Origin: an uncultured Veillonellaceae bacterium
GTDB lineage: Bacteria; Bacillota; Negativicutes; Veillonellales; Dialisteraceae
Assembly (NCBI GenBank): GCA_958348245.1
Contig: CATVYJ010000005.1
Coordinates: forward strand, 13,625 to 77,624
Length of the DNA stretch: 64,000 nucleotides
Reading direction: 5' to 3'
Shown: piece after piece, positions 30,192 through 63,566 of the stretch
How the letters are laid out: each line of letters begins with the position of its first letter
How positions within the stretch are numbered: the stretch's first letter is position 1
Made by a program: the position numbers and the translations under genes
Notes under the pieces: model-generated
Told to the model about the DNA's origin: nothing
The model's input: only the letters and a program-made list of their open reading frames with translations
Database searches by the model: none

Positions 30192-30200
30192 TTTTTTTAT

Positions 30201-45306: not shown

Positions 45307-45316
45307 GGAGGACAGC

Positions 45317-46687: not shown

Positions 46688-46964
46688 TACGACCCTCTGT
46701 AAATGAGACAGCGGCATCAGTCAAGGCCGCTGTCTTTTATTACACCTGGACAATTTTTTCTAAATTCTTTTATAAACACAGAATAAATCATATAAAGAAA
46801 GAGAAAAACATCGACAGACAAGGCCCCTGGGAAAGAAGAAGGGGCCGTTTTTACGGCCCAATTCATAAATACGAGATTATGGGATAAGGCAGAGAAGGGC
46901 ATGATTCGGAAAGGGATATAAAATAAATCTGGCAGAAGACAACAGCCATACATAGTCTTATGCA

Positions 46965-46993
46965 TTGACAGGTAAAGCCGCCTCCCGTACAAT
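46965..46993 (+). promoter_or_regulatory. sigma70 promoter TTGACA-N17-TACAAT driving cassette 1
   Basis: ttgaca ggtaaagccgcctcccg tacaat gaaaac, in an AT-rich 0.5-kb intergenic region. Confidence 0.65.
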
Positions 46994-47030
46994 GAAAACG
47001 TGGTTATTGAGATTACGAAACTCAATCATC

Positions 47031-47070
47031 ATGTATTCTATGGTCAAAAAGGAGGATAGCAGATAAGACC
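47031..47070 (+). promoter_or_regulatory. conserved leader hairpin motif (copy 1) in the roughly 190-nt 5'UTR of cassette 1
   Basis: gtATTCTatGGTCaaAAAGGAGGatagcagataaGACCg. See the copies at 50211 and 58877. Confidence 0.4.
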
Positions 47071-47193
47071 GAAATTTGTAAGTAGTTATAAACTGCATGA
47101 TTTATGATATTGATAGAAAATGACGAGTAATGATTTATAATCATGTAGACTTATAACGAATGTACAAACTCAGTTAGAGGAGGATTTGTTATT

Positions 47194-48357: not shown

Positions 48358-48372
48358 GGAGGCCTTTCATAC

Positions 48373-48492
48373 ATGGAACCGACAAGTGCAGCTCTTTTCC
48401 AGATGGTGGTCTGCGTACCGCTCATGTTCGTCGTCATCGGCATTTTCGTTCTGCTCACCAAGGGCCTGACGAAACTGTTCCCGGCGAAATAA
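48373..48492 (+). CDS. 39-aa single-TM peptide, OadG (gamma subunit) N-terminal-anchor-like. It is below the ORF-track size cutoff.
   Basis: MEPTSAALFQMVVCVPLMFVVIGIFVLLTKGLTKLFPAK, SD aaggagg 10 nt upstream. Compare the OadG N-terminus ...[41 protein letters not shown]. Confidence 0.6.
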   Translation: MEPTSAALFQMVVCVPLMFVVIGIFVLLTKGLTKLFPAK

Positions 48493-48630
48493 TCCGGCTG
48501 GAATTCTGAAACATTCGGAATGAGGGGGGCCCTCGAAAGCCTTCCGCGTCCCTCAAGGCGCGCTCCCGCCTTTCTTCCGGGAAAGCGCGGGAACACACCT
48601 CTTTTACCTGAAAAGGCGGTGTAAATCCCA
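48493..48630 (+). promoter_or_regulatory. conserved structured intercistronic spacer (nested hairpins + U-rich tail) between the mini-peptide gene and the Dcu gene. It is a candidate attenuator or RNA-processing site.
   Basis: gaggggggccctc, then cgcgcuCCCGccuuucuuCCGGGaaagcgcg, then acacaccucuuuuacc. It is about 95% identical to 51665-51804, more than the flanking coding DNA. Confidence 0.45.
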
Positions 48631-49941
48631 ATGGATATTTCGACTCCCGCTCTTGCCTCCATCATCGTACTGGTGGCAATCGTCGTATTCTCCTGCTTCC
48701 GCGATATCAACGTAGGTATCCTCGGCACGGCAGGGGGCCTTCTGGTCGGCATGATGTTTGCCGGCATGAAAATCAGCGAAGTCTACAAAGGCTGGCCGCT
48801 GTCCCTGTTCATGATCCTCGTGGGCGTTACGTTCATGTTCTCCGCCGCGCAGGTGAACGGCACCATGGAGAAATTCTCCGCGGTGTGCGTCCGTCTCGCC
48901 AAGGGCAACGTGGCTCTCATCCCGATCATTCTCTTCGTTCTCGTGACCTTCATCACCACCATCGGCCCCGGCAACATTGCCTCCACGGCCCTGATGGCTC
49001 CCATGTGCATGGCCATTGCAGGCCGCATCGGCCTCTCCCCGTTCTGCATGACGCTGCTCGTCGTCGGCGCGGCAAACGGCGCGGCCCTGTCTCCTTTCGC
49101 TCCGACCGGCATCATCTCCAACGGCCTCATCGCCCAGTGGGCGCCCCAGGTGGGCATCCCCACGGAGGAACTGTCCGGCATCGCCTGGAAGATTCACTGG
49201 AACTCTGAAATCGTACAGAGCGTCGTCAACTTCGGCGGCTTCTTCCTCACCGGCGGCCTCGCCTGGATGAGCAAGGCCAAGAGCGGCGGCGCGGACTTCG
49301 ACATCGACTCCATCGCTCCGAAGCCGGAACCCTTCGACTGGAAACAGAAGTACACCCTCTTCACGATGCTCGTCCTCGTGTGCGGCGTCATTTTCTTCAA
49401 ACTCGACGTAGGCATGCTCGCCTTCTGCATCGGCACCACCTTCATCCTCTTCAACATCGCGGATGACGGCGAAGCCGTGAAGAAAATGCCCTGGGGCGTC
49501 ATCGTCATGGTCTGCGGCATGTCCGTCCTGATCAACGTCATGGATAAGGCGGGCGGCCTGAACGCCCTCGTCGACATGATCGCCGTCGTATCCAACGGCA
49601 CGACCATCACCGGCGTCGTAGGCTTCATCGCGGGCCTGCTCTCCGCATACTCCAGCTCCTCCGGCGTCATCATGCCCATGTTCCTCAGCATGGTGCCGGG
49701 GCTCCTTGAAGCGGTGAATACCGTCGATGCGGACCACGCGGTCCGTCTGGCATCCGCCATCGACATCGGCGCTCACCTCGTCGATACGTCCCCGCTGTCC
49801 ACGCTGGGCGCGCTGTGCATCGCCAACGCGGTCACCGAAGACAAGGGCATTCTCTTCCGCAATCTGCTCCTGTGGGGGCTCTCCATGTCCGTCGTAGGCG
49901 GCGTCGTCTGCTACGTGGCCTTCGGTCTGCTCGGCCTGTAA
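48631..49941 (+). CDS. Dcu-family (DcuA/DcuB-like) anaerobic C4-dicarboxylate transporter, paralog B1
   Basis: 436 aa polytopic. It matches the DcuA/B N-terminal pattern (IIVLVAIVVFSCFRD.NVGILGTAGGLLVG versus DcuA VELIIVLLAIFLGARLGGIGIGFAGGLGV), a central ...TIGPGNIAS...LSPFAPTG, and the C-terminus. Confidence 0.6.
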   Translation: MDISTPALASIIVLVAIVVFSCFRDINVGILGTAGGLLVGMMFAGMKISEVYKGWPLSLFMILVGVTFMFSAAQVNGTMEKFSAVCVRLAKGNVALIPIILFVLVTFITTIGPGNIASTALMAPMCMAIAGRIGLSPFCMTLLVVGAANGAALSPFAPTGIISNGLIAQWAPQVGIPTEELSGIAWKIHWNSEIVQSVVNFGGFFLTGGLAWMSKAKSGGADFDIDSIAPKPEPFDWKQKYTLFTMLVLVCGVIFFKLDVGMLAFCIGTTFILFNIADDGEAVKKMPWGVIVMVCGMSVLINVMDKAGGLNALVDMIAVVSNGTTITGVVGFIAGLLSAYSSSSGVIMPMFLSMVPGLLEAVNTVDADHAVRLASAIDIGAHLVDTSPLSTLGALCIANAVTEDKGILFRNLLLWGLSMSVVGGVVCYVAFGLLGL

Positions 49942-49983
49942 GGCTGTCAACCGGACGCGGAAGAAAACAGACAGATGACAGAA

Positions 49984-50020
49984 AACTGGAAACGTACTTC
50001 GTGTCGTTTCCAGTTTTTTT
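49984..50020 (+). terminator. intrinsic terminator of cassette 1
   Basis: aactggaaacg tacttcgtgt cgtttccagtt ttttt. Confidence 0.7.
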
Positions 50021-50146
50021 GTGCGTAAAATAGACAGTGCAAATGATAACAAATCGTATATAAATCCGTCATTTCTCTATCCACGGAAACAACCATTTGT
50101 CAAATCGCATTTCTAAACCGGCCGGAGCGGGGGAAATCCCCTCTGA

Positions 50147-50175
50147 TTGACACCCAAAATGGCAAATCTTACAAT
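50147..50175 (+). promoter_or_regulatory. sigma70 promoter TTGACA-N17-TACAAT driving cassette 2
   Basis: ttgaca cccaaaatggcaaatct tacaat gaaacc. Confidence 0.6.
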
Positions 50176-50210
50176 GAAACCGTACTTATGGGCCACCAGA
50201 CCCGGCGTAC

Positions 50211-50250
50211 GCATTCTATGGTCGAAAAGGAGGGCAGCAGACAAGACCGA
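50211..50250 (+). promoter_or_regulatory. conserved leader hairpin motif (copy 2)
   Basis: gcATTCTatGGTCgaAAAGGAGGgcagcagacaaGACCg. Confidence 0.4.
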
Positions 50251-50371
50251 CAATGGCTGCGCGTTATAAACGCGTCTTTTATGAAGTCGATAGAATTACG
50301 GAAATGTCCTTCATGAAGACGAGAGAAAAATAACGGCGCGCAATATTTTCCTAAGAGGAGGAATTTTTAAC

Positions 50372-51532
50372 ATGGACACTCTGGCTCAGAACAGCGGTCT
50401 GTTTGACGAGCTTTTCCAGGGCATTTACGGACTGGCAGATGTGGGCATCCTCGCGATGTTCGTCGTCGGCTTCATCCTCATGTTCCTCGCCGTCAGATAC
50501 GACTATGAACCGATGCTGCTCTTCCCGATGGGCATCGGCTGCGTTCTTGCAAACATTCCCGGACACTACGCAGTGCTCCAGGATCCCGGAAGCGAAGGCT
50601 TCCTGTACGTTCTCTACAAAGCGGGTATCGCAAACGAACTTTTCCCGGTCATGATCTTTATCGCCATTGGTGCAATGTGCGAATTTGACCCGCTTATGAG
50701 AAAGCCGTTCGTCATGCTCTTCGCAGCAGCGGCTCAGTTCGGTATCTTCATGACTGCGTTCCTCGCGACGCTCCTCGGCTTCCCCTTCAACCAGGCGGCA
50801 GCCATCGGCATCATCGGCGCAGCTGACGGCCCGACCACGATCTTCGTCGCTTCCCGCTATGCGCAGGAAATGCTTGGACCGTTGTCCGTAGCGGCGTACT
50901 GCTACATGTCCCTCGTACCGGTTATTCAGCCTCCGATCATCAAACTGCTCACCACCAAACATGAACGCAAGATCCGTATGCCGTTCACCGGTGAAGCTCC
51001 GGTTTCTGATCGCGCACTCTTCATTTTCCCGCTGATGATCGTCATGGTCGCCGGCGTTGTAGCTCCTATTTCCGTACCGCTCATCGGCGCTCTCATGTTC
51101 GGCAACCTGCTGAAGGTATCCGGCTGCACCGACGACCTGGCAGACTGCGCGAAGGATGACCTGTCCAACCTCGTCACCCTGTTCCTCGGCCTGGTCGTAG
51201 GCTCCACCATGACGGCGGAAAACTTCCTGACCTTCGACGTATTCAAGATCCTCTGCCTCGGCGCGGTCGCATTCGTATTCGATACCGCCGGCGGCGTCAT
51301 CTTCGCGAAGATCGTCAATCTGTTCCTGACCAAGAAGATCAACCCGATGATCGGCGCATGCGGCATCTCCGCATTCCCGATGTCCGGCCGTGTTATCGCC
51401 AAGATGGCGCTGAAAGAAGATCCGACGAACTTCATCGTCCAGGATGCTATCGGCGTCAACGTAGCTGGTCAGATCGCCTCCGTTGTTGCCGGCGGCCTCG
51501 TGCTCTGCATGATCCCGCTGCTGTCTAAATAA
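50372..51532 (+). CDS. Na+-translocating decarboxylase beta subunit (OadB family), paralog A2
   Basis: 386 aa. About 85% identical to A1. From about residue 100 it is identical to A3 in protein and, over more than 600 bp, in DNA. Confidence 0.8.
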   Translation: MDTLAQNSGLFDELFQGIYGLADVGILAMFVVGFILMFLAVRYDYEPMLLFPMGIGCVLANIPGHYAVLQDPGSEGFLYVLYKAGIANELFPVMIFIAIGAMCEFDPLMRKPFVMLFAAAAQFGIFMTAFLATLLGFPFNQAAAIGIIGAADGPTTIFVASRYAQEMLGPLSVAAYCYMSLVPVIQPPIIKLLTTKHERKIRMPFTGEAPVSDRALFIFPLMIVMVAGVVAPISVPLIGALMFGNLLKVSGCTDDLADCAKDDLSNLVTLFLGLVVGSTMTAENFLTFDVFKILCLGAVAFVFDTAGGVIFAKIVNLFLTKKINPMIGACGISAFPMSGRVIAKMALKEDPTNFIVQDAIGVNVAGQIASVVAGGLVLCMIPLLSK

Positions 51533-51544
51533 GGAGGTCTTAGT

Positions 51545-51664
51545 ATGAATCCTGTAAGTGCAGCTCTTTTCCAGATGGTGGTCTGCGTACCGCTCATGTT
51601 CGTCGTTATCGGCGTTTTCGTTCTGCTCACCAAGGGCCTGACGAAAATGTTCCCGGCGAAATAA
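51545..51664 (+). CDS. 39-aa OadG-anchor-like mini-peptide (copy 2)
   Basis: MNPVSAALFQMVVCVPLMFVVIGVFVLLTKGLTKMFPAK, SD aaggagg. Confidence 0.6.
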   Translation: MNPVSAALFQMVVCVPLMFVVIGVFVLLTKGLTKMFPAK

Positions 51665-51804
51665 TCTGGCTGGAATTCTGAAACATTCGGAATGAGGGGG
51701 GCCCTCGAAAGCCTCCCGCGTCCCTCAAGGCGCGCTCCCGCGCTTTCTCACGGGAAGGCGCGGGAACACACCTCTTTTTACCTGAAAAGGTGGTGTAAAT
51801 CCCA

Positions 51805-53118
51805 ATGGATATTTCGACCCCGGCACTTGCCTCCATCATCGTACTGGTGGCAATCGTCCTGTTCTCCTGCTTCCGGGATATCAACGTAGGTATCCTCGGC
51901 ACCGCAGGCGGTCTGATTGTCGGCATGGTATTCTCCGGCATGAAGATCAATGAAGTCTACAAAGGCTGGCCGCTGTCCCTGTTCATGATCCTCGTCGGCG
52001 TAACGTTCATGTTCTCCGCCGCACAGGTTAACGGCACGATGGAGAAATTCTCCGCGATCTGCGTACGTCTTGCGAAAGCAAACATCCGCCTGATTCCGTT
52101 CATTCTGTTCTTCCTCGTGACCTTCATCACGACCATCGGCCCCGGCAACATCGCAACCACCGCTCTGATGGCTCCGATGTGCATGGCCATTGCAGGCCGT
52201 ATCGGCCTCTCCCCGTTCTGCATGACGCTGCTCGTAGTCGGCGCGGCAAACGGCGCGGCCTTCTCTCCTTTCGCTCCGACCGGCATCATTTCCAACGGCA
52301 TCATCGCCAGCTGGGCTCCGCAGGTCGGCATTCCTCAGGAAGCTCTTTCCGGTCTCGGCTGGAAGATTCACTGGAACTCTGAAATCGCTCAGGGCGTCGT
52401 CAACTTCGGCGGCTTCTTCCTGACCGGCGGCCTTGCCTGGATGGGCAAAGCCAAAGGCGGCGCGGACTTCGACATCGATTCCATCGCTCCGAAGCCGGAC
52501 GCATTTGACTGGAAGCAGAAGTACACCCTCTTCACGATGGTCGTACTGGTTGTAGGCGTTATCGCCTTCCACCTGGACGTAGGCATGCTTTCCTTCGTTA
52601 TCGGCACGACCTACATCCTCTTCAACATTGCTGACGACGGCGAAGCCGTAAAGAAAATGCCCTGGGGCGTCATCGTCATGGTCTGCGGTATGTCTGTCCT
52701 GATCAACGTCATGGATAAGGCAGGCGGCCTGAACGCTCTCATCGACATGATCGCCATCGTGTCCAACGGCACGACCATCAACGGCGTGGTCGGCTTCATC
52801 GCAGGTCTGATTTCCGCATACTCCAGCTCCTCCGGCGTTGTCATGCCGATGTTCCTGAACATGGTTCCCGGCCTGCTGCAGGCTGTGGGCACCTTTGATG
52901 CAGATCATGCGGTTCGTCTCGCATCCTCCATCAATATCGGCGCTCACCTCGTAGATACCTCCCCGCTGTCCACCCTCGGCGCGCTCTGCATTGCAAACGC
53001 GGCTGTAGACGACAAGGCGAAGGGCGTACTCTTCCGGAACCTCCTGTTCTGGGGTCTGTCCATGTCCGTCGTAGGCGCAGTGGTCTGCTACGTATTCTTC
53101 GGTCTGCTCGGCCTGTAA
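51805..53118 (+). CDS. Dcu-family C4-dicarboxylate transporter, paralog B2
   Basis: 437 aa, MDISTPALASIIVLVAIVLFSCFRDINVGILGTAGGLIVG... About 95% identical to B4, with 100% DNA-identical tracts. Confidence 0.6.
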   Translation: MDISTPALASIIVLVAIVLFSCFRDINVGILGTAGGLIVGMVFSGMKINEVYKGWPLSLFMILVGVTFMFSAAQVNGTMEKFSAICVRLAKANIRLIPFILFFLVTFITTIGPGNIATTALMAPMCMAIAGRIGLSPFCMTLLVVGAANGAAFSPFAPTGIISNGIIASWAPQVGIPQEALSGLGWKIHWNSEIAQGVVNFGGFFLTGGLAWMGKAKGGADFDIDSIAPKPDAFDWKQKYTLFTMVVLVVGVIAFHLDVGMLSFVIGTTYILFNIADDGEAVKKMPWGVIVMVCGMSVLINVMDKAGGLNALIDMIAIVSNGTTINGVVGFIAGLISAYSSSSGVVMPMFLNMVPGLLQAVGTFDADHAVRLASSINIGAHLVDTSPLSTLGALCIANAAVDDKAKGVLFRNLLFWGLSMSVVGAVVCYVFFGLLGL

Positions 53119-53142
53119 TCCTTTACAGCGCAGGCAGCTGAT

Positions 53143-53180
53143 AAAAAACACAGCTTTCTTCGGAAGGCTGTGTTTTTTTG
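53143..53180 (+). terminator. intrinsic terminator of cassette 2
   Basis: aaaaaacacagctttcttcggaaggctgtgtttttttg. Confidence 0.7.
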
Positions 53181-53194
53181 CGCGCCCGCGGCAA

Positions 53195-53460
53195 AGCGCG
53201 GCCCGGCATACAGAGAACAGAAAAGAAACGGACGGCGCGGGAAACGGAGGATGGAAAAGGAGAAAACGGAGACGGGAGAGGGCGGAGGCAGCCGGAAGCG
53301 GGGAGGAACGGAAACGAGGCGGGAAGCGCGGAGACCGGGAAAGGCGGAGGGCCCGCGCTTCCGCCCGGCGCTTCGATGAGGGCCGCGGACAAGGGGGCGG
53401 AGAACGGGTGTGCGGCCCTTCCGCGGCGGACGTCCGCAGAAGAGCGGGCAGGGAGAATAT
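53195..53460 (+). repeat. roughly 260-nt strongly purine-skewed (GA-rich) low-complexity tract
   Basis: acagagaacagaaaagaaacggacggcgcgggaaacggaggatggaaaaggagaaaacggagacgggagagggcggaggcagccggaagcggggaggaacggaaacgaggcgggaagcgcggagaccgggaaaggcggaggg... Almost no pyrimidines on the + strand. Confidence 0.6.
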
Positions 53461-53566
53461 AAATAAAAACTTTCGGAAAATACAAATAAAAAGAAAAAGA
53501 GAGCGCATCCGGAACGGCTATTAAAGAAATCTATAAGAGGACATGTCAAAATTCTTTCAAAATGAA

Positions 53567-53595
53567 TTGACTGTATAGACGGGCTTTGCTATGAT
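53567..53595 (+). promoter_or_regulatory. sigma70 promoter TTGACT-N17-TATGAT for the solitary Dcu gene B3
   Basis: ttgact gtatagacgggctttgc tatgat. Confidence 0.55.
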
Positions 53596-53774
53596 AGGCG
53601 GGCAATGCCCAAAACCGGCCAGTGTACCGTATGATACACACCGGAAAAGAAGACGGGCGAGCGGCGCAGTTTACAGATCTCATTCCTATTTTTCTTCCGC
53701 GCGCTCCCGCCTCGGGCAGGCAGCCGGTTCAGGCAGGGGACATCCCCGCCATTTCTCACGACGGACTCCGCATG

Positions 53775-53800
53775 GGCGGGCCCGCTTTCTTTTCAAGGTG
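53775..53800 (+). promoter_or_regulatory. hairpin + U-tract (attenuator-like) just upstream of the B3 RBS
   Basis: catgggcgggcccgctttcttttcaagg, then ggtggtgtaaag RBS. Confidence 0.4.
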
Positions 53801-53813
53801 GTGTAAAGTTTTA

Positions 53814-55127
53814 ATGGAAATTTCAACCCCGGCTCTTGCCTCCATCATCGTACTGGTGGCAATCGTCCTGTTTTCCTGCTTCCGGGATATCAACGTAGGT
53901 ATCCTCGGCACGGCAGGCGGTCTGCTGGTGGGCATGCTCTTCTCGGGCATGAAAATCAGCGAAGTCTACGAGGGCTGGCCTCTCAGCCTCTTCATGATCC
54001 TCGTGGGCGTGACGTTCATGTTCTCCTGCGCGCAGGTGAACGGCACCATGGAAAAATTCTCCGCGGTGTGCGTCCGTCTGGCCAAGGCGAATGTGGCGCT
54101 CATTCCGATCATCATGTTCCTGCTGACCACGTTCATCGTGACCATCGGCCCCGGCAACATTGCGGGCACGGCGCTCCTCGCGCCGGTCGCCATGGCGATC
54201 GCCGGCCGTATCGGCCTCTCCCCGTTCTGCATGACGCTGCTCGTGGTCGGCGCGGCAAACGGCGCGGCTTTCTCTCCTTTCGCACCGACGGGCATCATCT
54301 CCAACGGCATCATCGCCGGCTGGGCTCCGCAGGTAGGCATTCCGGCGGATCAGCTGGACAGCCTGGCCTGGAAAGTGCATTTCAACTCTGAAATCGCGCA
54401 GGGCATCGTCAACTTCGGCGGCTTCTTCCTCACGGGCGGCGCGGCATGGATGATGCGCGCCCGCAAAGACGCGAGCTTCGACATCGACTCCATCGCTCCG
54501 AAGCCGGGCGCTTTCGACTGGAAGCAGAAGTACACCCTTCTCACCATGGTCGTTCTCGTGGTGGGCGTCATTTTCTTCAAACTTGACGTAGGCATGCTCT
54601 CCTTCATCATCGGCACCACCTACATTCTCTTCAACATCGCCGACGACGGCGAAGCCGTGAAGAAAATGCCCTGGGGCGTCATCGTCATGGTCTGCGGTAT
54701 GTCTGTCCTGATCAACGTCATGGACCAGGCGGGCGGCCTGAACGCGCTCGTCCAGATGATCGCCGTCGTATCGAACGACACCACCGTGACCGGCGTGGTG
54801 GGCTTCATCTCCGGCCTCATCTCCGCGTACTCCAGCTCCTCCGGCGTCGTCATGCCCATGTTCCTCAACATGGTGCCCGGCCTGCTCGAAGCAGTGGGCA
54901 CGGTGGACGCGGACCATGCGATCCGTCTCGCTTCTTCCATCAACATCGGCTCCCACCTGGTGGATACGTCTCCGCTGTCCACGCTGGGCGCGCTCTGCAT
55001 CGCGAACGCCGCTGTAGACGACAAGGCGAAGGGCATCCTCTTCCGGAATCTGCTCTTCTGGGGCCTCTCCATGTCCATCGTGGGCGGCTTCGTGTGCTAC
55101 GTCGCATTCGGCCTGCTCGGCCTCTGA
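53814..55127 (+). CDS. Dcu-family C4-dicarboxylate transporter, paralog B3 (solitary, with no OadB partner)
   Basis: 437 aa, MEISTPALASIIVLVAIVLFSCFRDINVGILGTAGGLLVG... Internal start; the upstream part of the 501-aa track ORF is leader. Confidence 0.6.
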   Translation: MEISTPALASIIVLVAIVLFSCFRDINVGILGTAGGLLVGMLFSGMKISEVYEGWPLSLFMILVGVTFMFSCAQVNGTMEKFSAVCVRLAKANVALIPIIMFLLTTFIVTIGPGNIAGTALLAPVAMAIAGRIGLSPFCMTLLVVGAANGAAFSPFAPTGIISNGIIAGWAPQVGIPADQLDSLAWKVHFNSEIAQGIVNFGGFFLTGGAAWMMRARKDASFDIDSIAPKPGAFDWKQKYTLLTMVVLVVGVIFFKLDVGMLSFIIGTTYILFNIADDGEAVKKMPWGVIVMVCGMSVLINVMDQAGGLNALVQMIAVVSNDTTVTGVVGFISGLISAYSSSSGVVMPMFLNMVPGLLEAVGTVDADHAIRLASSINIGSHLVDTSPLSTLGALCIANAAVDDKAKGILFRNLLFWGLSMSIVGGFVCYVAFGLLGL

Positions 55128-55156
55128 TATCCATGTATAGTGCCTGAACCGCACGC

Positions 55157-55185
55157 AACCGCAGCCATGCCGGCTGCGGTTTTTG
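55157..55185 (+). terminator. intrinsic terminator after B3
   Basis: aaccgcagcc atgcc ggctgcggtt tttg. Confidence 0.65.
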
Positions 55186-55354
55186 CGTGCGCGGGAAAAG
55201 CGGGCGGCGCGGTATAATAGAGAAAAAGGCGGACGGGCCGGCCCCGGAAGCCTTCGGGCGGGCGTTCGCGGGCATGACCGGGAACGTCCGCGCCATGGAA
55301 GCGCGCGGGCGGGATTTTCCTGCGGGCCGCGGGCGGCATCGGGAGGGAAGAGGG

Positions 55355-55846
55355 ATGACGGTGGAAATCATTCCCGGCTGGGAACGGCCGGACGACGTGC
55401 GGGCGCTTTTTGCGGAGTATACGGCGCTGCTCGTTCGCGGGGACCCGGCGTTTGCCGGCTATCTGGAATTGCAGAAGTACGACGACGAGCTGAAACATCT
55501 GCGCCGGAAATACGGACCGCCCGCGGGGCGTCTCTATGCGGCGTATGCGGACGGCGCACCCGCCGGATGCGCCGCCCTGAAGCCGATCGACGGCGCATCG
55601 TGCGAATTGAAGCGGCTCTATGTGCGGCCTGCGTACCGCGGAAACCGTCTCGGCCGCCTTCTCGTGGAGCGGATTCTCGAGGACGCCCGGACCATCGGGT
55701 ATGCGGCGGTCTATCTGGATACGCTTCCCTTCCTGCGGGACGCGATCCGCCTGTACCGGCAGTGCGGATTCCGGGACGTCCCCAAATGGAACGACAGCCC
55801 CATGGAGGCGGCTCTTTATATGAAACTGGATTTGGAGGATATATAA
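55355..55846 (+). CDS. GNAT-family N-acetyltransferase
   Basis: MTVEIIPGWERPDDV...ELKRLYVRPAYRGNRLGRLLVERILEDARTIGYAAVYLDT (acetyl-CoA binding Q/RxxGxG/A motif). Confidence 0.75.
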   Translation: MTVEIIPGWERPDDVRALFAEYTALLVRGDPAFAGYLELQKYDDELKHLRRKYGPPAGRLYAAYADGAPAGCAALKPIDGASCELKRLYVRPAYRGNRLGRLLVERILEDARTIGYAAVYLDTLPFLRDAIRLYRQCGFRDVPKWNDSPMEAALYMKLDLEDI

Positions 55847-55898
55847 ATAAGAAAAAATAGAGAAACCGCCGGAGCGGCGGAGGAAGGAGGGGCAGACG

Positions 55899-56573
55899 AT
55901 GGAAGCCTTTGCGGCGGGCGGGAAAACCGTGACGCTCTATCCGGCGGATGCGGCGGACGCGCCGGTGCTGGTCCTGCCCGTGTACGATGGAGACGGGGCG
56001 GACGTGGCGCAGGCCCTCGCCGGGCGGCAGGCTCCGCCGGCGCATCTCGCCGTGATCGGCGGCCTCGACTGGGGCGGGGACATGACGCCCTGGCCGTGCC
56101 CGCCGCTCTCGAGATATGACGCGCCCTGTACGGGCGGGGCGGACCGTTGTCTCGCCGGGCTGACGGAGCGCATCCTTCCCGAAGCGGAGCGCCGCATGGG
56201 CGCGCGGCCCTGCTGGCGGGGGATCGCGGGGTATTCGCTGGCGGGGCTCTTCGCGCTCTACGCGCTGTACCGGACGGACGTCTTTTCCCGCGCGGCATCC
56301 GTGTCGGGCTCGCTCTGGTTTCCCCGCTTTCTGGAATACGCGGAGACGCATGCCATGGCTGCAAAGCCTTCGCGGGTCTATTTCTCGCTGGGCGGACGGG
56401 AAGCGCGCACGCGCCATCCCCTGATGAAGACGGTGCAGGCGCGGACGGAGGCCGTGGAGCGCCTCTTCCGTGCGCGCGGGGCGGAGACGGTTTTTGTGCA
56501 GAACCGGGGCGGCCATTTCACCGATCCCGCGGGGCGCACGGCGGCGGGCATCGACTGGCTGCTGCGCGGGTAG
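55899..56573 (+). CDS. alpha/beta-hydrolase esterase (putative-esterase family)
   Basis: ...WRGIAGYSLAGLFALYA (GxSxG nucleophile elbow), 224 aa. Confidence 0.6.
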   Translation: MEAFAAGGKTVTLYPADAADAPVLVLPVYDGDGADVAQALAGRQAPPAHLAVIGGLDWGGDMTPWPCPPLSRYDAPCTGGADRCLAGLTERILPEAERRMGARPCWRGIAGYSLAGLFALYALYRTDVFSRAASVSGSLWFPRFLEYAETHAMAAKPSRVYFSLGGREARTRHPLMKTVQARTEAVERLFRARGAETVFVQNRGGHFTDPAGRTAAGIDWLLRG

Positions 56574-56753
56574 CATTGGAGCGGGAGGAAACGGGAACGG
56601 AAGAGCCTTGCCGGAGGAGGCGGAGACCTTTGCGGGTTTCCGCTTTTTGCATGCGCGTTCCGCATTGTACGGCGGCGGGGCGGTGTGATATAATGCACGG
56701 CGTCTCTGTCTTGAAGAGACGGTATATATAAGTAGACAGAAAGAGGGGACGCA

Positions 56754-57695
56754 ATGATTCGGAATATTCCTGTACCGGCGGCGGGGGTCATGCTCGGGCT
56801 GGCCGCGCTGGGGCATCTGCTGGCGCCGTACGGCCTGCCGCTCAAATATCTCTGCGGCGTGTGCGCGCTGTTTCTGGGGCTGCTTCTGCTGGCCCGCGCG
56901 GCGCGCTATCCGCGGGCGCTTCTGCAGGATCTGAACGGCAGCTCCGTCCTGGGGAGCGTGGCCGCCACGTTTTTCATGGCGTGGGTGCAGCTCGCAGCCT
57001 ATGCCGCGCCGTTTGCGCCGGGCGCGGGGCATGCGCTGTGGCTGGCTGCGGCGGCGGGCCATACGGCGCTCATGGGATGGTTTACGGCGCGCTATCTGCG
57101 CAGGCCCGCGCTGCGCGACGTGTTTCCCACCTATTTCATCGCCTACGTGGGGCTCATCGCGGCGTCGGTCACCGCGCCGGCTTTTGGCGAAGAGGCGCTG
57201 GGCGCGTGGATTTTCCGCTTCGGGTTCGCGGCGTATGTGGCGCTCTTCGTGCTCGTCACCGTGCGCTATCTGAAAGAGAGGGACATCCCCGAGCCGGCGC
57301 GGCCTCTCTTCTGCATTTACGCCGCGCCCATGAGCCTGTCGCTCGCGGGGTATCTCGCGTGCATGCCGGAGAAATCGACGGAGGCGGTGCTGCTCATGGC
57401 GGGGCTCGCGCAGATTTTCTACGCGGTGGTGATCGTCCGCCTGCCCGGCCTGCTCCGCCTGCCTTTCTATCCGAGCTATGCGGCCTTTACCTTTCCCTGC
57501 GTGATTTCCGCGGCGGCGCTCCGGCAGGCGCTGATGCATCTGGACGGCGCGGGCGTGGCGGTGCCGGCGGCGTATCATCTGCTGGCGGAAGCGGAAACGG
57601 CGGTGGCCGCGGCGGTCGTCTTCTATGTGTTCGCCCGGTACCTGCATTTCCTGTTCCGCCGCGCTCCGGCGCGGGCCGCTGAGGGGGCGGCGTAA
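56754..57695 (+). CDS. TDT-family transporter (TehA/Mae1-like C4-dicarboxylate / tellurite-resistance transporter)
   Basis: 313 aa, 10-TM profile, MIRNIPVPAAGVMLGLAALGHLLAPYG... typical of TehA/TDT proteins. Confidence 0.6.
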   Translation: MIRNIPVPAAGVMLGLAALGHLLAPYGLPLKYLCGVCALFLGLLLLARAARYPRALLQDLNGSSVLGSVAATFFMAWVQLAAYAAPFAPGAGHALWLAAAAGHTALMGWFTARYLRRPALRDVFPTYFIAYVGLIAASVTAPAFGEEALGAWIFRFGFAAYVALFVLVTVRYLKERDIPEPARPLFCIYAAPMSLSLAGYLACMPEKSTEAVLLMAGLAQIFYAVVIVRLPGLLRLPFYPSYAAFTFPCVISAAALRQALMHLDGAGVAVPAAYHLLAEAETAVAAAVVFYVFARYLHFLFRRAPARAAEGAA

Positions 57696-57700
57696 ACATT

Positions 57701-57754
57701 CCCAAATAAAAAAGAACGGACGCGTGACGGCGTATCCGTTCTTTTTTATTTGGG
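57701..57754. terminator. bidirectional terminator (near-perfect palindrome with A/T-runs on both sides)
   Basis: cccaaataaaaaagaacggacgcgtgacggcgtatccgttcttttttatttggg. Confidence 0.7.
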
Positions 57755-57758
57755 ACGT

Positions 57759-58598
57759 TTATTTTTCTTTCGGCAGGGCCGCTGTCTGCGCGGCGTCCGT
57801 GCCCTCTTCGGAGGACGGTTCCGCTTCGGCTGCGGGGACCGCGCCGCTTTCTCCGGCGTCTGCTGCCGGCGCTTCCGCGGCTTCGCCGGTCTCCGGCGCT
57901 TGTGCTGCGGCTTCATTCACCGGTTCCGCCTCATGGGCCGCCGGATGGGCGGTCGGTTTTTCCGTGTCCTCTGCGGCGGCGTCCTTCGCTTCTTCCGCGG
58001 CGAGCGCGGCGGCTTCCGCCTTCTTCGCGCGGTTGCGGTTCTTCTTCTGCTCCGCGCCGCTGATGTAATGGAACGCGTGCTTCAGCACTTCATTCTGGGA
58101 GACGCGGATGCGTCCGGGCACGCGCTTTTCAAATTCTTCCCAGAATTCGTCCGACGCTTTCATGAGCACCCGGGAGACCTTGTCCGTGCCGGGCATATTG
58201 TATACGAGCGACCAGATGTCCCGCTTGTCCAGATTGCCGTACATGCGGTACGTGTGCCGGTAGGAGATCGCCTTGATGGGCTCCACCTTGAAATGGAAGG
58301 CCCCGTCCATGGCGCTGTAGGGGATGGCCATTTTCCGTGTGCGGAAGAGCGACGCCTTGATGATGACCAGCTCTTTCGCGTGGAGTTCGTATGTGGTGCG
58401 GGTGAGCGTCATGCTCAGGAGGAAGAGCAGGAGCAGCGCTTCCGTGAGAATGTCCAGCCACGGCATCTGATGATTGTTGTAGATATACCGCACCGTCATC
58501 ATCACATACCCCAGGAGGCAGATGCCCAGCGTGCCGTAGACGTACATGTACGTGCGGTGCACTTCGGAGCGTTCCGTTACGATTTTTTCTTCCTTCAT
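57759..58598 (-). CDS. hypothetical membrane protein with an acidic Ala/Glu-rich low-complexity C-terminal tail
   Basis: 279 aa, MKEEKIVTERSEVHRTYMYVYGTLGICLLGYVMMTVRYIY...; tail ...AEEAKDAAAEDTEKPTAHPAAHEAEPVNEAAAQAPETGEAAEAPAADAGE... Confidence 0.5.
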   Translation of the reverse strand: MKEEKIVTERSEVHRTYMYVYGTLGICLLGYVMMTVRYIYNNHQMPWLDILTEALLLLFLLSMTLTRTTYELHAKELVIIKASLFRTRKMAIPYSAMDGAFHFKVEPIKAISYRHTYRMYGNLDKRDIWSLVYNMPGTDKVSRVLMKASDEFWEEFEKRVPGRIRVSQNEVLKHAFHYISGAEQKKNRNRAKKAEAAALAAEEAKDAAAEDTEKPTAHPAAHEAEPVNEAAAQAPETGEAAEAPAADAGESGAVPAAEAEPSSEEGTDAAQTAALPKEK

Positions 58599-58806
58599 AG
58601 AGACTCCTTTGATTCGCAGAATATACGGGAAATATACAGACCTATTTTACACCAAAACCATGAATAAATCATAACAAAATGAGCAATAAAAAATGTAACA
58701 GAAAATCTACAGAATAAAACGATCAAGTTACTGTAAGATAAAATATAAACTGGAGCGTTAGAGAAAAAAGAGACATGCAATATTATCTAAACAAAAATAT
58801 TTCATA

Positions 58807-58835
58807 TTGACGAAGAAAAGTTTAGCGATTAGAAT
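58807..58835 (+). promoter_or_regulatory. sigma70 promoter TTGACG-N17-TAGAAT driving cassette 4
   Basis: ttgacg aagaaaagtttagcgat tagaat, in an AT-rich 0.4-kb intergenic region. Confidence 0.6.
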
Positions 58836-58876
58836 CGAGGCATGACAGGGTGTACGGACCCCGTACGCCCCGCCGC

Positions 58877-58916
58877 ATTCTCAGCCGGAAAGGAGGACAG
58901 TGGGTCAGGCTGGAAT
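58877..58916 (+). promoter_or_regulatory. conserved leader hairpin motif (copy 3, with compensatory stem change)
   Basis: gcATTCTcAGCCggAAAGGAGGacagtgggtcaGGCTgg. The stem AGCC/GGCT replaces GGTC/GACC of copies 1 and 2. Confidence 0.4.
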
Positions 58917-59033
58917 TTCATCCCGGGCGCTCCGGCGGAACCCATCAATCCAAAACTTGCAAAATCACAAATCCTGTTTCCGCAGGGGAAGAGGGGATGA
59001 AAGAAATATCTTTCTTCATAAGGAGGACTTATC

Positions 59034-60194
59034 ATGGATATGTTGGCACAGAATAGCCAGCTGTTTGACGAGCTTTTCCAGGGCGTGTACGGACTGGCCG
59101 ACGTCGGCGTGCTGTCGATGTTTGTCGTAGGCTTCATCCTCATGTTCCTCGCCGTCAAATACGATTATGAACCGGTCCTGCTGTTCCCGATGGGCATCGG
59201 ATGCATTCTTGCAAACATCCCGGGCCATTACGCAGTACTCCAGGATCCCGGAAGCGAAGGCTTCCTGTATGTGCTTTATCAGGCGGGTGTCGCAAACGAA
59301 CTTTTCCCGGTCATGATTTTTATCGCCATTGGTGCAATGTGCGAATTTGACCCGCTGATGAGAAAGCCTTTCGTCATGCTCTTCGCAGCAGCCGCTCAGT
59401 TTGGTATCTTCATGACCGCGTTCCTCGCGACGCTCCTCGGCTTCCCCTTCAACCAGGCGGCGGCTATCGGCATCATCGGCGCGGCTGACGGCCCGACCAC
59501 GATCTTCGTCGCTTCCCGCTATGCGCAGGAAATGCTTGGACCGTTGTCCGTAGCGGCGTACTGCTACATGTCCCTCGTACCGGTTATTCAGCCTCCGATC
59601 ATCAAACTGCTCACCACCAAACATGAACGCAAGATCCGTATGCCGTTCACCGGTGAAGCTCCGGTTTCTGATCGCGCACTCTTCATTTTCCCGCTGATGA
59701 TCGTCATGGTCGCCGGCGTTGTAGCTCCTATTTCCGTACCGCTCATCGGCGCTCTCATGTTCGGCAACCTGCTGAAGGTATCCGGCTGCACCGACGACCT
59801 GGCAGACTGCGCGAAGGATGACCTGTCCAACCTCGTCACCCTGTTCCTCGGCCTGGTCGTAGGCTCCACCATGACGGCGGAAAACTTCCTGACCTTCGAC
59901 GTATTCAAGATCCTCTGCCTCGGCGCGGTCGCATTCGTATTCGATACCGCCGGCGGCGTCATCTTCGCGAAGATCGTCAATCTGTTCCTGACCAAGAAGA
60001 TCAACCCGATGATCGGCGCATGCGGCATCTCCGCATTCCCGATGTCCGGCCGTGTTATCGCCAAGATGGCGCTGAAAGAAGATCCGACGAACTTCATCGT
60101 CCAGGATGCTATCGGCGTCAACGTAGCTGGTCAGATCGCATCGGTCGTTGCAGGCGGCCTCGTCCTCTGCATGATCCCGATGCTTATGCAGTGA
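59034..60194 (+). CDS. Na+-translocating decarboxylase beta subunit (OadB family), paralog A3
   Basis: 386 aa, MDMLAQNSQLFDELFQGVYGLADVGVLSMFVVGFILMFLAVKYDYEP... The 3' two-thirds are identical to A2. Confidence 0.8.
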   Translation: MDMLAQNSQLFDELFQGVYGLADVGVLSMFVVGFILMFLAVKYDYEPVLLFPMGIGCILANIPGHYAVLQDPGSEGFLYVLYQAGVANELFPVMIFIAIGAMCEFDPLMRKPFVMLFAAAAQFGIFMTAFLATLLGFPFNQAAAIGIIGAADGPTTIFVASRYAQEMLGPLSVAAYCYMSLVPVIQPPIIKLLTTKHERKIRMPFTGEAPVSDRALFIFPLMIVMVAGVVAPISVPLIGALMFGNLLKVSGCTDDLADCAKDDLSNLVTLFLGLVVGSTMTAENFLTFDVFKILCLGAVAFVFDTAGGVIFAKIVNLFLTKKINPMIGACGISAFPMSGRVIAKMALKEDPTNFIVQDAIGVNVAGQIASVVAGGLVLCMIPMLMQ

Positions 60195-60209
60195 TTGGAG
60201 GGATAAGTT

Positions 60210-60329
60210 ATGAATCCAGTAGCAGCATCCCTTTTCCAGATGGTGGTATGCGTACCGCTGATGTTCCTGGTCATCCTCATTTTCGTGGGTCTCACGAAGC
60301 TCCTCACGAAGATGTTCCCCGCAGAATAA
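60210..60329 (+). CDS. 39-aa OadG-anchor-like mini-peptide (copy 3)
   Basis: MNPVAASLFQMVVCVPLMFLVILIFVGLTKLLTKMFPAE, SD ggaggg. Confidence 0.6.
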   Translation: MNPVAASLFQMVVCVPLMFLVILIFVGLTKLLTKMFPAE

Positions 60330-60424
60330 TTCTGCCCGATCCTTTATTTTCCACATAAAGGCGTGCCCCCGTATCCGCGAGGGTGCGGGGACCCACCTCT
60401 TCCATGCAAAGGTGGTGTAAACCA

Positions 60425-61738
60425 ATGGATATTTCGACCCCGGCTCTTGCCTCCATCATCGTACTGGTGGCAATCGTCCTGTTCTCCTGCTTCCGGGACT
60501 GCAACGTAGGTATTCTCGGCACGGCAGGGGGCCTTCTGGTCGGCATGGTCTTCGCAGGCATGAAGATCAGCGCTGTCTACAAAGGCTGGCCGCTGTCTCT
60601 GTTCATGATCCTCGTCGGCGTAACGTTCATGTTCTCCGCCGCACAGGTCAACGGCACGATGGAAAAATTCTCGGCTGTGTGCGTACGTCTTGCGAAAGCA
60701 AACATTCGCCTGATTCCGTTCATTCTGTTCTTCCTCGTGACCTTCATTACGACCATCGGCCCCGGCAACATCGCTTCCACCGCTCTGATGGCTCCGATGT
60801 GCATGGCTATCGCTGGCCGTATCGGCCTCTCCCCGTTCTGCATGACGCTGCTCGTAGTCGGCGCGGCAAACGGCGCGGCCTTCTCTCCTTTCGCTCCGAC
60901 CGGCATCATTTCCAACGGCATCATCGCCAGCTGGGCTCCGCAGGTCGGCATTCCTCAGGAAGCTCTTTCCGGTCTCGGCTGGAAGATTCACTGGAACTCT
61001 GAAATCGCTCAGGGCGTCGTCAACTTCGGCGGCTTCTTCCTCACCGGCGGCCTTGCCTGGATGGCAAAGGCCAAAGGCGGCGCGGACTTCGACATCGATT
61101 CCATCGCTCCGAAGCCGGAACCCTTCGACTGGAAGCAGAAATACACCCTGCTCTCCATGGTCGTCCTGGTAGTAGGCGTTATTTTCTTCAAACTCGACGT
61201 AGGCATGCTCTCCTTCTGCATCGGCACCACGTACATCCTCTTCAACATTGCGGATGACGGCGATGCAGTGAAGAAAATGCCCTGGGGCGTCATCACCATG
61301 GTCTGCGGTATGTCTGTCCTGATCAACGTCATGGACGAGGCAGGCGGCCTGAACGCTCTCGTTGATATGATCGCTGTCGTTTCCAACGGCACGACCGTCA
61401 ACGGCGTGGTCGGCTTCATCGCAGGTCTGATTTCCGCATACTCCAGCTCCTCCGGCGTTGTCATGCCGATGTTCCTGAACATGGTTCCCGGCCTGCTGCA
61501 GGCTGTGGGCACCTTTGATGCAGATCATGCGGTTCGTCTCGCATCCTCCATCAATATCGGCGCTCACCTCGTAGATACCTCCCCGCTGTCCACCCTCGGC
61601 GCGCTCTGCATTGCAAACGCGGCTGTAGACGACAAGGCGAAGGGCGTCCTCTTCAGAAACCTCCTCTTCTGGGGCCTGTCCATGTCCATTGTCGGCGCAG
61701 TGGTCTGCTATGTCTTCTTCGGTCTCCTCGGACTGTAA
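60425..61738 (+). CDS. Dcu-family C4-dicarboxylate transporter, paralog B4
   Basis: 437 aa, MDISTPALASIIVLVAIVLFSCFRDCNVGILGTAGGLLVG... Internal start after aaaggtggtgtaaacca. Confidence 0.6.
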   Translation: MDISTPALASIIVLVAIVLFSCFRDCNVGILGTAGGLLVGMVFAGMKISAVYKGWPLSLFMILVGVTFMFSAAQVNGTMEKFSAVCVRLAKANIRLIPFILFFLVTFITTIGPGNIASTALMAPMCMAIAGRIGLSPFCMTLLVVGAANGAAFSPFAPTGIISNGIIASWAPQVGIPQEALSGLGWKIHWNSEIAQGVVNFGGFFLTGGLAWMAKAKGGADFDIDSIAPKPEPFDWKQKYTLLSMVVLVVGVIFFKLDVGMLSFCIGTTYILFNIADDGDAVKKMPWGVITMVCGMSVLINVMDEAGGLNALVDMIAVVSNGTTVNGVVGFIAGLISAYSSSSGVVMPMFLNMVPGLLQAVGTFDADHAVRLASSINIGAHLVDTSPLSTLGALCIANAAVDDKAKGVLFRNLLFWGLSMSIVGAVVCYVFFGLLGL

Positions 61739-61783
61739 GATAGAACGCGGCAGTGTCGGAAGCGCAGGCTTCTGAATGCGCGG

Positions 61784-61820
61784 AAAACCGTGATTGTCTT
61801 TTGACAGTCACGGTTTTTTT
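61784..61820 (+). terminator. intrinsic terminator of cassette 4
   Basis: aaaaccgtgattgtcttttgacagtcacggttttttt. Confidence 0.7.
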
Positions 61821-61890
61821 GTGCGCGGAAAACGGGCGCGGCGGCGGTGCGCCCGCGTGCGGGGCAATAAAAAAAGACCGGAGCGTCCGG

Positions 61891-63000
61891 TCATTTTTCA
61901 TGCGGCCCGCCGCCGCGCTGCTGCGCCTCCCGCAGATAGTCGAAGAGCGTCTTGCGCATGGCGCTGCCGTCGGGGCGGTCGTCCGCGTCGTGGATGTCCG
62001 AGAGCGTCTGGATGGCGGCGAGGCGCTCCGCTACGGCGCGGCGGAAATGTTCGCGGATAAAGGCGAGCGCGTACGGCGCGTGGAGCGATTCATTTTTCCG
62101 GCGGAGCGGCACGAAAATGGGCAGCCGGTCCGGGAGGATCTCCAGCTCCAGCGGGAAGGACGGCCCGCGGTCGCCGTCCACATTCGTCCACAGCTCTTCG
62201 CCGTTCGTGAGGGAAATGCGCGCTTTCTTCACGTTGATGACCGAGAGGAGCTCCGTCCCCATCTGCAGCCCCGCGAGAAGCATCGGCCCCTGCCGCAGGA
62301 GGCGGAGCCAGTCCAGATCGCGGAAGAGCGCCAGCTTGATGACGCCCTTATTGCGGTCTTCCGGCGGGAGAAGATTGCGGAAGCTGCCCGCCGAGTCCGT
62401 GAGCATGGCCGCCATGAGAGGAGACGCCATGCGGATGGACGCGCCGCCGTCCGTCTCGATGAGGAAACGGTACGATTTCTGCCGGGGCAGCGCCTGCAGC
62501 CCCTTCATGAAATAGGCGAGCGAGCCGAAGAGCGTCTTCTCCTTGATGGATACCTGGCTCACCGCCTCCGGGATGAGGCCCGCCGCGACGATATTGATGA
62601 AGTAGCGTCCGTTTACCCGGCCCACGTCGATCTTCGTTTCCTCCGCCGTCTCCAGCATGCGGATGGCCCCGCGGGGCGAGCGGGGAATGTGCAGCGCCCG
62701 CGCGAGGTCGTTCACCGTGCCGAAGGGGATGAACGCGAAGACCGACGGGCTCTCCACCTGCATCATGCCGTTGATGACTTCGTTGATGGTGCCGTCGCCG
62801 CCCATACAGACGATATTGTAATGCCGCTCGGCGGCGCTCTTCGCGAAATCAGAGGCGTCGCCCGCCTTTTCCGTCTCCCGCGTGATCACATGGGCGTAGC
62901 GCCTGGCCAGCACCTCCTGCAGCAGCGGCAGATACCGCGGCGCCCGTTCCCGGCCCGACGTGGGATTGATGATGATGACCGCAGTGTCCGTCTGGTTCAC
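61891..63000 (-). CDS. diacylglycerol-kinase-family lipid kinase (DagK/YegS-like), GTG start
   Basis: VNQTDTAVIIINPTSGRE...NIVCMGGDGTINEV. The start follows gaggagg. Confidence 0.75.
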   Translation of the reverse strand: MNQTDTAVIIINPTSGRERAPRYLPLLQEVLARRYAHVITRETEKAGDASDFAKSAAERHYNIVCMGGDGTINEVINGMMQVESPSVFAFIPFGTVNDLARALHIPRSPRGAIRMLETAEETKIDVGRVNGRYFINIVAAGLIPEAVSQVSIKEKTLFGSLAYFMKGLQALPRQKSYRFLIETDGGASIRMASPLMAAMLTDSAGSFRNLLPPEDRNKGVIKLALFRDLDWLRLLRQGPMLLAGLQMGTELLSVINVKKARISLTNGEELWTNVDGDRGPSFPLELEILPDRLPIFVPLRRKNESLHAPYALAFIREHFRRAVAERLAAIQTLSDIHDADDRPDGSAMRKTLFDYLREAQQRGGGPHEK

Positions 63001-63218: not shown

Positions 63219-63566
63219 AAGCACATCAACCAATACCAAAAACGTACAAATGCAATGAACGAGATAAACGGAAGCTGACAAGCCTCTGCAGAGAGCCGAT
63301 GACAGGTGCAAATCGGCGTGGCCCGGCGGACAGACATCACTCGCGAGCACTTTTTCTGAATGGAGTAGGAAAAGGCGGAACGTTCCCGTTACGAACAGAG
63401 CCCAAGTACAATGTAGGGTGGTACCGCGCACAGCGCCCCTATCTTCAGCAGAAGCTGAGGGTAGGATTTTTTAGTATCACCGGTACGGCGGCTTCCGAGT
63501 AAGAAATCAGGGTGGTACCGCGCACAGCGCCTCTGTCTCCGCAAAAGGAGGCGGGGCGTTTTTTTG
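63219..63566 (+). ncRNA. T-box riboswitch leader with a duplicated T-box/terminator module
   Basis: Two copies of the canonical T-box sequence AGGGTGGTACCGCG (63414-63427 and about 63509-63522). Each is followed by a GC hairpin + U-run (…gagggtaggatttttt and cgcctc…gaggcggggcgttttttt). An AGAGA box lies upstream. Confidence 0.65.

Follow-up and report, generated by a model that had tools for sequence, protein, structure and literature searches.

Gene conversion between operon cassettes for a sodium-pump subunit and a carboxylate carrier in a gut Veillonellaceae bacterium

How can two operon cassettes that lie 8.7 kb apart share hundreds of nucleotides (nt) of identical DNA when the leaders in front of them differ? 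The question is raised by a 64,000-nt stretch of contig CATVYJ010000005.1 (the window) from an uncultured Veillonellaceae bacterium (Negativicutes) of the human gut. Its region from 47.2 to 61.7 kb holds three copies of a gene for the beta subunit of a Na+-translocating decarboxylase (A) and four copies of a gene for a carboxylate carrier (B). They form three A-s-B cassettes, in which s is a small open reading frame (ORF), and one solitary B (B3), in the order A1-s-B1 / A2-s-B2 / B3 / A3-s-B4, bounded by bioA and a DAGK gene. A preliminary description of the window had noted identical tracts in cassettes 2 (A2-s-B2) and 4 (A3-s-B4) and attributed them to ongoing gene conversion or to a very recent 2.7-kb segmental duplication. 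We conclude that the identical tracts are very probably gene conversion tracts, left by old duplicates that have repeatedly overwritten each other.

A2 (50372-51532, 386 amino acids [aa]) and A3 (59034-60194, 386 aa), like all features below on the plus strand unless stated otherwise, are direct repeats whose starts lie 8662 nt apart, in agreement with the 8.7 kb first given. They are 94.7% identical, and their 61 differences are clustered: the first ~453 nt hold 48 and the last ~55 nt the other 13. In between, one uninterrupted stretch of 656 nt (50822-51477) matches 59484-60139 at every position. Pairwise alignment therefore returned one long identical A block rather than uniformly spread differences, and the reported nucleotide identity over more than 600 bp was upheld. 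The 5' part had been described as diverged by synonymous and conservative changes over roughly 300 bp; divergence with mostly conservative changes was found, but it extends over ~450 nt, and at ~10.6% it equals the divergence of orthologues between species. Only 13 residues differ between the two proteins, 10 of them in the first 86 aa and 3 in the last 4. B2 (51805-53118, 437 aa) and B4 (60425-61738, 437 aa) are 93.4% identical, and the identical tracts reported for this pair could be refined to perfect runs of 227 nt (52195-52421, identical to 60815-61041) and 250 nt (52778-53027, identical to 61398-61647). Homology between the cassettes reaches from ~15-20 nt 5' of the A start codon to the B stop codon. 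Beyond these limits the leaders and the downstream flanks with their terminators cannot be aligned between cassettes 2 and 4 or are ~35-67% identical, as is also true of much of the A-B spacer within them, so the leaders differ as had been stated. The antisense ORFs at 50926-51459 and 59588-60121 had been offered as confirmation of the identity. Their translations are indeed identical, but both ORFs lie wholly within the A tract, so that this follows trivially and is no independent evidence; the ORFs are by-products of high G+C inside the tract.

The clustering is far beyond chance. In a GENECONV-style permutation of polymorphic columns (282 columns and 200,000 shuffles for the window A pair), A2 and A3 had 130 consecutive concordant columns, a run that none of the shuffles matched (maximum 73). 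A second clustering test gave 0 of 20,000 shuffles for each of the window A and B pairs, and the uniform-placement estimate of the chance of a 656-nt A run was ~5e-21. The tract is not intrinsically invariant, because the same 656 nt carry 63 differences between A1 and A2, 55-57 between orthologues of different species, and 39 between A2 and A3 of a related strain, L094.

Related loci and assemblies used for comparison are referred to by L-numbers, and W denotes the window's own strain. The own-species (clade-I) group consisted of L094, whose flanking genes are 97-98% identical to those of the window, and of L002, L091, L092, L093 and L095, which were assigned to the species via 98-99% identical cassette genes. 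A sister-species group (L003/L099, L004-L010 and L100-L102) has flanking genes 78-87% identical to the window's. Each group included one single-contig genome, L094 (1.93 Mb, own species) and L099 (1.75 Mb, sister species). In the sister species the array has the identical order between bioY-bioD-bioA and DAGK, with an unrelated minus-strand ORF before A3. Leaders 1 and 4, each unique within the array, have orthologous counterparts there (73-76% over 340-510 nt; leader 4, 76% over 337 nt), and flanking single-copy genes show 78-87% identity between species versus 97-98% within species. Since array order and leaders are shared with the sister species, the duplication predates speciation. Judged from these comparisons, the array is an old tandem array, and a very recent duplication is excluded.

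Despite this age, paralogous copies within one genome were closer to each other than to their orthologues in the other species. A orthologues differed between species at 105-125 nt, whereas A2 and A3 within a genome differed at 2-98 (98 in L094, 61 in the window, 25 in L099, 9 in L102, and 2 in each of L100, L101 and L005). Likewise, B2/B4 orthologues differed between species at 159-172 nt and B2 and B4 within genomes at 5-106, and paralogues were closer than orthologues also at synonymous sites. The same relation was obtained in a four-taxon test with 150-nt windows that used L094 and L099 alone. For A, the windows that begin at columns 301, 451 and 751 had 0-5 differences per 150 nt between paralogues and 10-16 between orthologues; for B, those that begin at columns 151 and 301 had 0-8 and 21-24. 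GENECONV-like permutation gave P values of 0.025 (A) and 0.0009 (B) for L094, and 0.009 (A) and 0.007 (B) for L099.

Strains of the window's own species are ~0.4-3% apart at orthologous copies and flanking genes, yet the ends and direction of the tracts are strain-specific. In every one of these strains A is stably copy-specific over its 5' ~390 nt and over its last ~55 nt, and the middle blocks move between copies. In a comparison that draws mostly on short-read assemblies, the haplotypes of A2/A3 at columns 568-690 were x/y in L094 and L002, x/x in the window and L095, and y/y in L092 and L091; conversion ran both ways, from A2 to A3 in some strains and from A3 to A2 in others. On the same basis, the A tract spans columns 454-1109 in the window, 454-1031 in L095, 388-1019 in L092, 436-893 in L091 and 700-1031 in L002, and the A pair of L094 has no perfect run of at least 150 nt. 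The claim that conversion is ongoing is supported by an old array, its concerted evolution, and tract ends and donor directions that vary among close strains.

Exchange is not confined to cassettes 2 and 4. An A1-like block, with A1 as donor, was found in A2 of two strains (L094 and L091) and in A3 of a third (L093). Among sister-species loci, L102 has an A2 with an A3-type middle block, and L100 and L101 have A1-like blocks in both copies. A1 is 87.5% identical to A2, yet the cassette 1 spacer (48384-48630) and the cassette 2 spacer (51556-51804) are homogenized to 95.6% identity, as they are in L094. The array is therefore a network of exchanges in which cassette 1 participates and cassettes 2 and 4 are merely the most conspicuous pair.

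A likely course of events is that homologous recombination between the direct repeats, on the same chromosome or on sister chromosomes, would copy a stretch of one paralogue over the other non-reciprocally. The exchange would be RecA-type and limited by homology. In the window's species, tracts would stop where divergence is high, that is, at the 5' ~450 nt of A (~10%), at the A-B spacer and at the unique leaders, and the 5' divergence of A would probably act as a self-reinforcing recombination barrier. A functional need for this divergence is improbable, since homogenization has reached the whole A gene in the sister species. Resolution of the same intermediates by crossover would delete or amplify the 8.7-kb unit; the preliminary description had likewise predicted deletion or amplification of the bracketed 53.1-59.0 kb segment.

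One of these two outcomes was encountered. Scaffold L004 has a single hybrid cassette, in which the 5' flank and A to ~nt 900 are of cassette-2 type and the 3' end of A, the spacer and the 3' flank are of cassette-4 type; it is without B2, B3 and the intervening ORF. The crossover lies between its positions 10897 and 11068, within the homogenized 3' part of A. The prediction was thus matched by a deletion in one scaffold; an amplified form of the 8.7-kb unit was not found among related assemblies. A DAGK-anchored metagenome scan for further deletion variants returned three close loci, none of which extends far enough into the array. A different rearrangement is present in L102, where 389 nt copied from the 3' end of its A2 and from its spacer 2 are inserted in cassette 4 and B4 is without its first ~310 nt. 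Besides this insert and the 5'-truncated B4, L102 (GCA_025544315.1; 1942-3149, 14219-14700) has an insertion sequence (IS) element with an rve integrase 5' of A1. The segment between the repeats varies as well. A block of genes for a GNAT protein (55355-55846), an esterase (55899-56573) and a SLAC1/TDT-family transporter (56754-57695) lies between B3 and a 279-aa ORF, has 63-67% G+C over 55355-57695, and occurs in the window's own species; the sister species is without it and has a different, 253-aa ORF after B3, which marks an indel within the inter-repeat segment.

Among other explanations, the one that survives best is that the window's perfect identity is largely an assembly artefact: the true paralogues would differ as they do in L094, and their bulges would have been merged and the consensus edge used twice. 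We consider this unlikely, but several points weigh against our own interpretation. The window contig (ena:ERZ18534352:NODE_55_length_184667_cov_39.58) is a SPAdes-style short-read metagenome contig, and metaSPAdes by design collapses larger bulges into a consensus backbone (PMC5411777). The longest perfect runs, of 458-1153 nt, all came from short-read assemblies, and the single-contig genomes had the shortest (L094, 104 nt in A and 133 nt in B; L099, 284 and 200 nt, respectively), the long-read status of these two genomes being taken from contig size and naming alone. Many contigs break at the tract, in line with the assembly-collapse hazard pointed out earlier, and L103 and L104 have swapped spacers that resemble mis-phasing; both are what failed phasing across the repeat would give. 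The assembler could therefore have produced part of the window's perfect identity and some of the states that set strains apart. L004, a single scaffold, is a candidate for the predicted inter-repeat deletion in which the assembly path may have jumped across the identical tract. Finally, which recombination machinery acts, which way each event went and whether there is any selective value are matters that we infer.

Against an artefact stands, first, that one short-read pipeline (ASCI21-1) kept the x/y block, with its 17-21 differences, in L002 and gave y/y in L092. The spacer phasing of the window also matches that of L094 (spacer 2, 99.6% identical; spacer 4, 97.8%), and a 918-kb NCBI contig of L102 (GCA_025544315.1) has a 969-nt perfect A2/A3 run, although it is not countable as long-read evidence. 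Most tellingly, the mosaic pattern and the paralogue distance below the orthologue distance hold in the single-contig genomes alone. An artefact could lengthen tracts, but it cannot produce the underlying concerted evolution. Gene conversion in the array is real, and the assembler may have lengthened the 656-nt perfect run of the window to some degree.

Several tandem mosaic paralogues, frequent exchange and variability among strains are also features of programmed, diversity-generating cassette systems of the antigenic or phase-variation kind, such as pilE/pilS or vlsE. Such a system is very improbable here, since every copy is intact and has a promoter-like site and a Shine-Dalgarno sequence, with no silent donor and no single expression site, and since the encoded proteins belong to the inner membrane of a diderm bacterium. 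The exchange moreover homogenizes the copies and is mostly synonymous, 61 nt differences giving 13 aa changes. Specialized cis elements were looked for, and no att-like sites, conserved recombination sites, inverted repeats or shared flanks were found at the cassette ends. An integron or mobile cassettes were likewise considered and rejected: homology does not extend past the stop codon, no two cassettes have the same terminator hairpin, the leaders are unique, and there is no integrase within the array in the window.

The very recent 2.7-kb duplication, by which cassette 4 would have been made from cassette 2 or the reverse and the diverged parts replaced or mutated later, would account for the 93-95% overall identity, the direct orientation and the spacing of 8.7 kb. 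We give it still less credence than a programmed system. Both cassettes occupy the same positions in the sister species, with an orthologous leader 4, a common DAGK boundary and flanks that are 78-87% identical. The 5' ~450 nt of A2 and A3 are as diverged as orthologues between species, no alignment is possible over the leaders, the terminators and much of the spacer, and L094 is without long tracts although its flanks are nearly those of the window. Least credible of all is extreme purifying selection or codon constraint without recombination. The tract does span the conserved beta-subunit core, with residues D203 and S382 of the Na+ site and N373 of the core fold, but its identity extends to synonymous sites, and the same 656 nt vary between A1 and A2, between species and between the L094 copies, as given above.

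Gene conversion between old duplicates thus remains by far the best account, and it has known counterparts. Concerted evolution by ectopic gene conversion occurs in bacterial paralogues such as tufA/tufB and the rrn operons (survey, PMC6053082; rates, PMC8022953). Like these, the array combines an old duplication and different flanks with paralogues that are closer than orthologues, including at synonymous sites, and with mosaic differences. It is unlike them in that the unit is an operon cassette of three genes, present three to four times in tandem, that the window's species homogenizes only parts of each gene, and that polymorphic, polarity-resolved tracts are visible among co-circulating gut strains. 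Concertedly evolving prokaryotic genes tend to encode subunits of complexes (PMC6053082), and the beta subunit acts in a beta3gamma3 complex (PMC7274780), so that the beta-subunit products of the array, as members of a stable multisubunit complex, follow this tendency. The words 'decarboxylase' and 'transporter' are absent from the main text of the 26-gene survey (PMC6053082). The hybrid cassette of L004 resembles direct-repeat deletion by unequal crossing-over, with the difference that it is known from one scaffold only and that the amplified form was not found. The process is ordinary homology-dependent ectopic conversion, known in itself and here seen in a new gene family and organism, with no new mechanism. 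The locus is a well-resolved natural case of concerted evolution of a whole operon cassette, in which unconverted copies and copies converted in opposite directions are found side by side among strains of the human gut. In practical terms, short-read metagenome assembly and the calling of strains and single-nucleotide polymorphisms are easily misled by the cassettes, through contig breaks, mis-phased spacers and possibly merged paralogous variants, and the region from 47 to 62 kb needs care in gene-content and variant analyses of this gut Veillonellaceae lineage.

What the converted genes encode could be established well for A. The protein is a Na+-translocating decarboxylase beta subunit by its match to PF03977 (457.5 bits in A2; cutoff 31.6), by TIGR01109 (380-383 bits for A1-A3, with 380 bits for A1; cutoff 190.6) and by comparison with the solved Salmonella OadB structure (PDB 6IVA, 1e-82, matched by A2). 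Ten residues are essential in StOadB/KpOadB (E40, D203, Y229, R304, N311, N373, G377, S382, N412 and S419; PMC7274780), and eight of them are kept in A. The exceptions are the R304 position, which also varies in the bona fide Negativicutes homologues of Veillonella and Acidaminococcus, and the N311 position, where Asp replaces the essential Asn of StOadB in A1, A2 and A3 (motif AKDDL versus AQNEL). Asn311 is kept in the Veillonella, Acidaminococcus, Phascolarctobacterium and Pectinatus homologues. A is ~70% identical to its homologues in Veillonella, Acidaminococcus, Dialister and Phascolarctobacterium.

The B proteins are MatC_N/CitMHS-type carriers (MatC_N 104-106 bits, cutoff 23; CitMHS 56-63 bits, cutoff 31.9), and no NCBIfam model matched them. 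The solitary carrier had been labeled Dcu; this identity was rejected, since MatC_N and CitMHS were the sole Pfam matches of B at E <= 0.001. The third component, s, follows directly after each A (s1 48373-48492, s2 51545-51664, s3 60210-60329) and encodes a 39-aa single helix with a Shine-Dalgarno sequence upstream (AAGGAGG in s1). It has a sub-threshold match to the NCBIfam model OadG_rel_small, an 'OadG-related small transporter subunit' (NF040909; 20.3 bits for s1, cutoff 25), and a Pfam search with the 39-aa ORFs gave noise only. In related contigs s1 is annotated as a gene, and a small ORF after the beta gene is also present in Veillonella, Acidaminococcus, Dialister, Phascolarctobacterium and Pectinatus. 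It may be an unrecognized small subunit of the Negativicutes Na+ decarboxylases or of the adjacent carrier.

The combination with a carrier has parallels elsewhere. A-s-B arrangements occur in Phascolarctobacterium (A-s-B-B), Pectinatus and Acidaminococcales, and the cassettes resemble in particular Phascolarctobacterium and Pectinatus, where the same small ORF comes after the beta gene and one to three carrier genes come next. Veillonella, Acidaminococcus and Dialister have A-s without B. In Veillonella, A-s closes a complete operon, with Carboxyl_trans, OAD_gamma and Biotin_lipoyl genes directly 5' of the beta gene. Unlike this mmd operon, the cassettes consist of beta subunit, small peptide and carrier only, with no alpha, OAD_gamma-type or biotin-carrier gene. 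When Veillonella operon proteins were used as probes, no alpha or biotin-carrier partner was found beside the cassettes or anywhere in the 64-kb window, and the only biotinyl-domain match was the BCCP of an unrelated biotin carboxylase/CT_A_B cluster (346-3586, minus strand).

In P. faecium a transporter gene directly after the beta-subunit gene is highly expressed in co-culture with a succinate-producing Bacteroides (PMC7568257). By analogy, the probable role of the cassettes is to provide Na+ export through A and Na+-coupled uptake of dicarboxylates such as succinate through B in a decarboxylation-driven energy metabolism, and the several near-redundant copies probably serve dosage or differential regulation. 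Three pump-subunit and four carrier copies point to heavy investment in Na+-coupled dicarboxylate metabolism. A bolder idea is that beta subunit, OadG-like peptide and carrier form a self-contained, separately regulated 'Na+-cycling module'. A pump subunit would be made together with a Na+-coupled dicarboxylate importer, to which it might also bind, and the module would be uncoupled genetically from the catalytic alpha subunit and the biotin carrier. The array would serve this gut specialist as a hot spot of recombination for tuning copy number and for moving module parts between differently regulated promoters, and the conversion, deletion and insertion variants among strains would be adaptive standing variation, not neutral by-products. 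We hold this to be speculative and rather improbable.

All cassettes and the solitary B3 carry a strong sigma70-like site ~200 nt 5' of the start codon. In cassette 1 this is TTGACA-17-TACAAT at 46965-46993, ~200 nt 5' of A1 (47194-48357, 387 aa), which is followed by s1 and B1 (48631-49941, 436 aa). Cassette 2 has the same motif at 50147-50175 and, after B2, a terminator-like hairpin of its own at 53143-53178. B3 (53814-55127), with a promoter-like site at 53567-53595, is the most diverged carrier copy (83% to B2/B4). The GNAT/esterase/transporter block lies downstream of it, followed by the 279-aa ORF (57759-58598, minus strand), which is without a family match and stands 5' of the cassette-4 leader, and by the cassette-4 promoter, TTGACG-17-TAGAAT at 58807-58835. 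Downstream of B4 a single-copy DAGK_cat/YegS-like kinase gene (61891-63000, minus strand) forms the conserved boundary of the array.

The four ~200-nt leaders (46960-47200, 50142-50378, 53562-53820 and 58802-59040) are otherwise unique; besides the promoter, they have AAAGGAGG in common. This Shine-Dalgarno-like element is located ~60 nt 3' of the -10 box, with complementary GGTC...GACC arms around it in leaders 1 and 2. No Rfam family matched the element, which may be a regulatory hairpin or the ribosome-binding site of a leader peptide. An Rfam scan of 43.8-64 kb found nothing in the cassette leaders, and its sole strong match was a T-box leader at 63246-63443 (86.3 bits, under the gathering score of 93; E = 8e-18), 3' of which lies a gene annotated as a periplasmic binding protein (Peripla_BP_6) in related contigs. 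The array (46000-62000) has 53-60% G+C compared with ~62-70% in the remaining window, a difference that could come from membrane-protein composition or from a foreign origin of the array.

Directly 5' of the cassettes is the bioY-bioD-bioA cluster (44001-46687), so that biotin supply genes adjoin subunits of a biotin-dependent pump, and the cluster at the start of the window already mentioned consists of genes for biotin carboxylase, BCCP and a PxpC/KipA-like CT_A_B protein. Elsewhere in the window, an SbcC-like ATPase ORF (AAA_23 / SbcC Walker B) was found at 7962-11654 and a tRNA-Asn/Glu/Val cluster at 30040-30276. A 1226-aa YadA-type trimeric autotransporter adhesin (12035-15715) contains internal direct repeats at 13425-14020 and 13646/14969, with ~250-nt units that are 83% identical and 345 nt apart.

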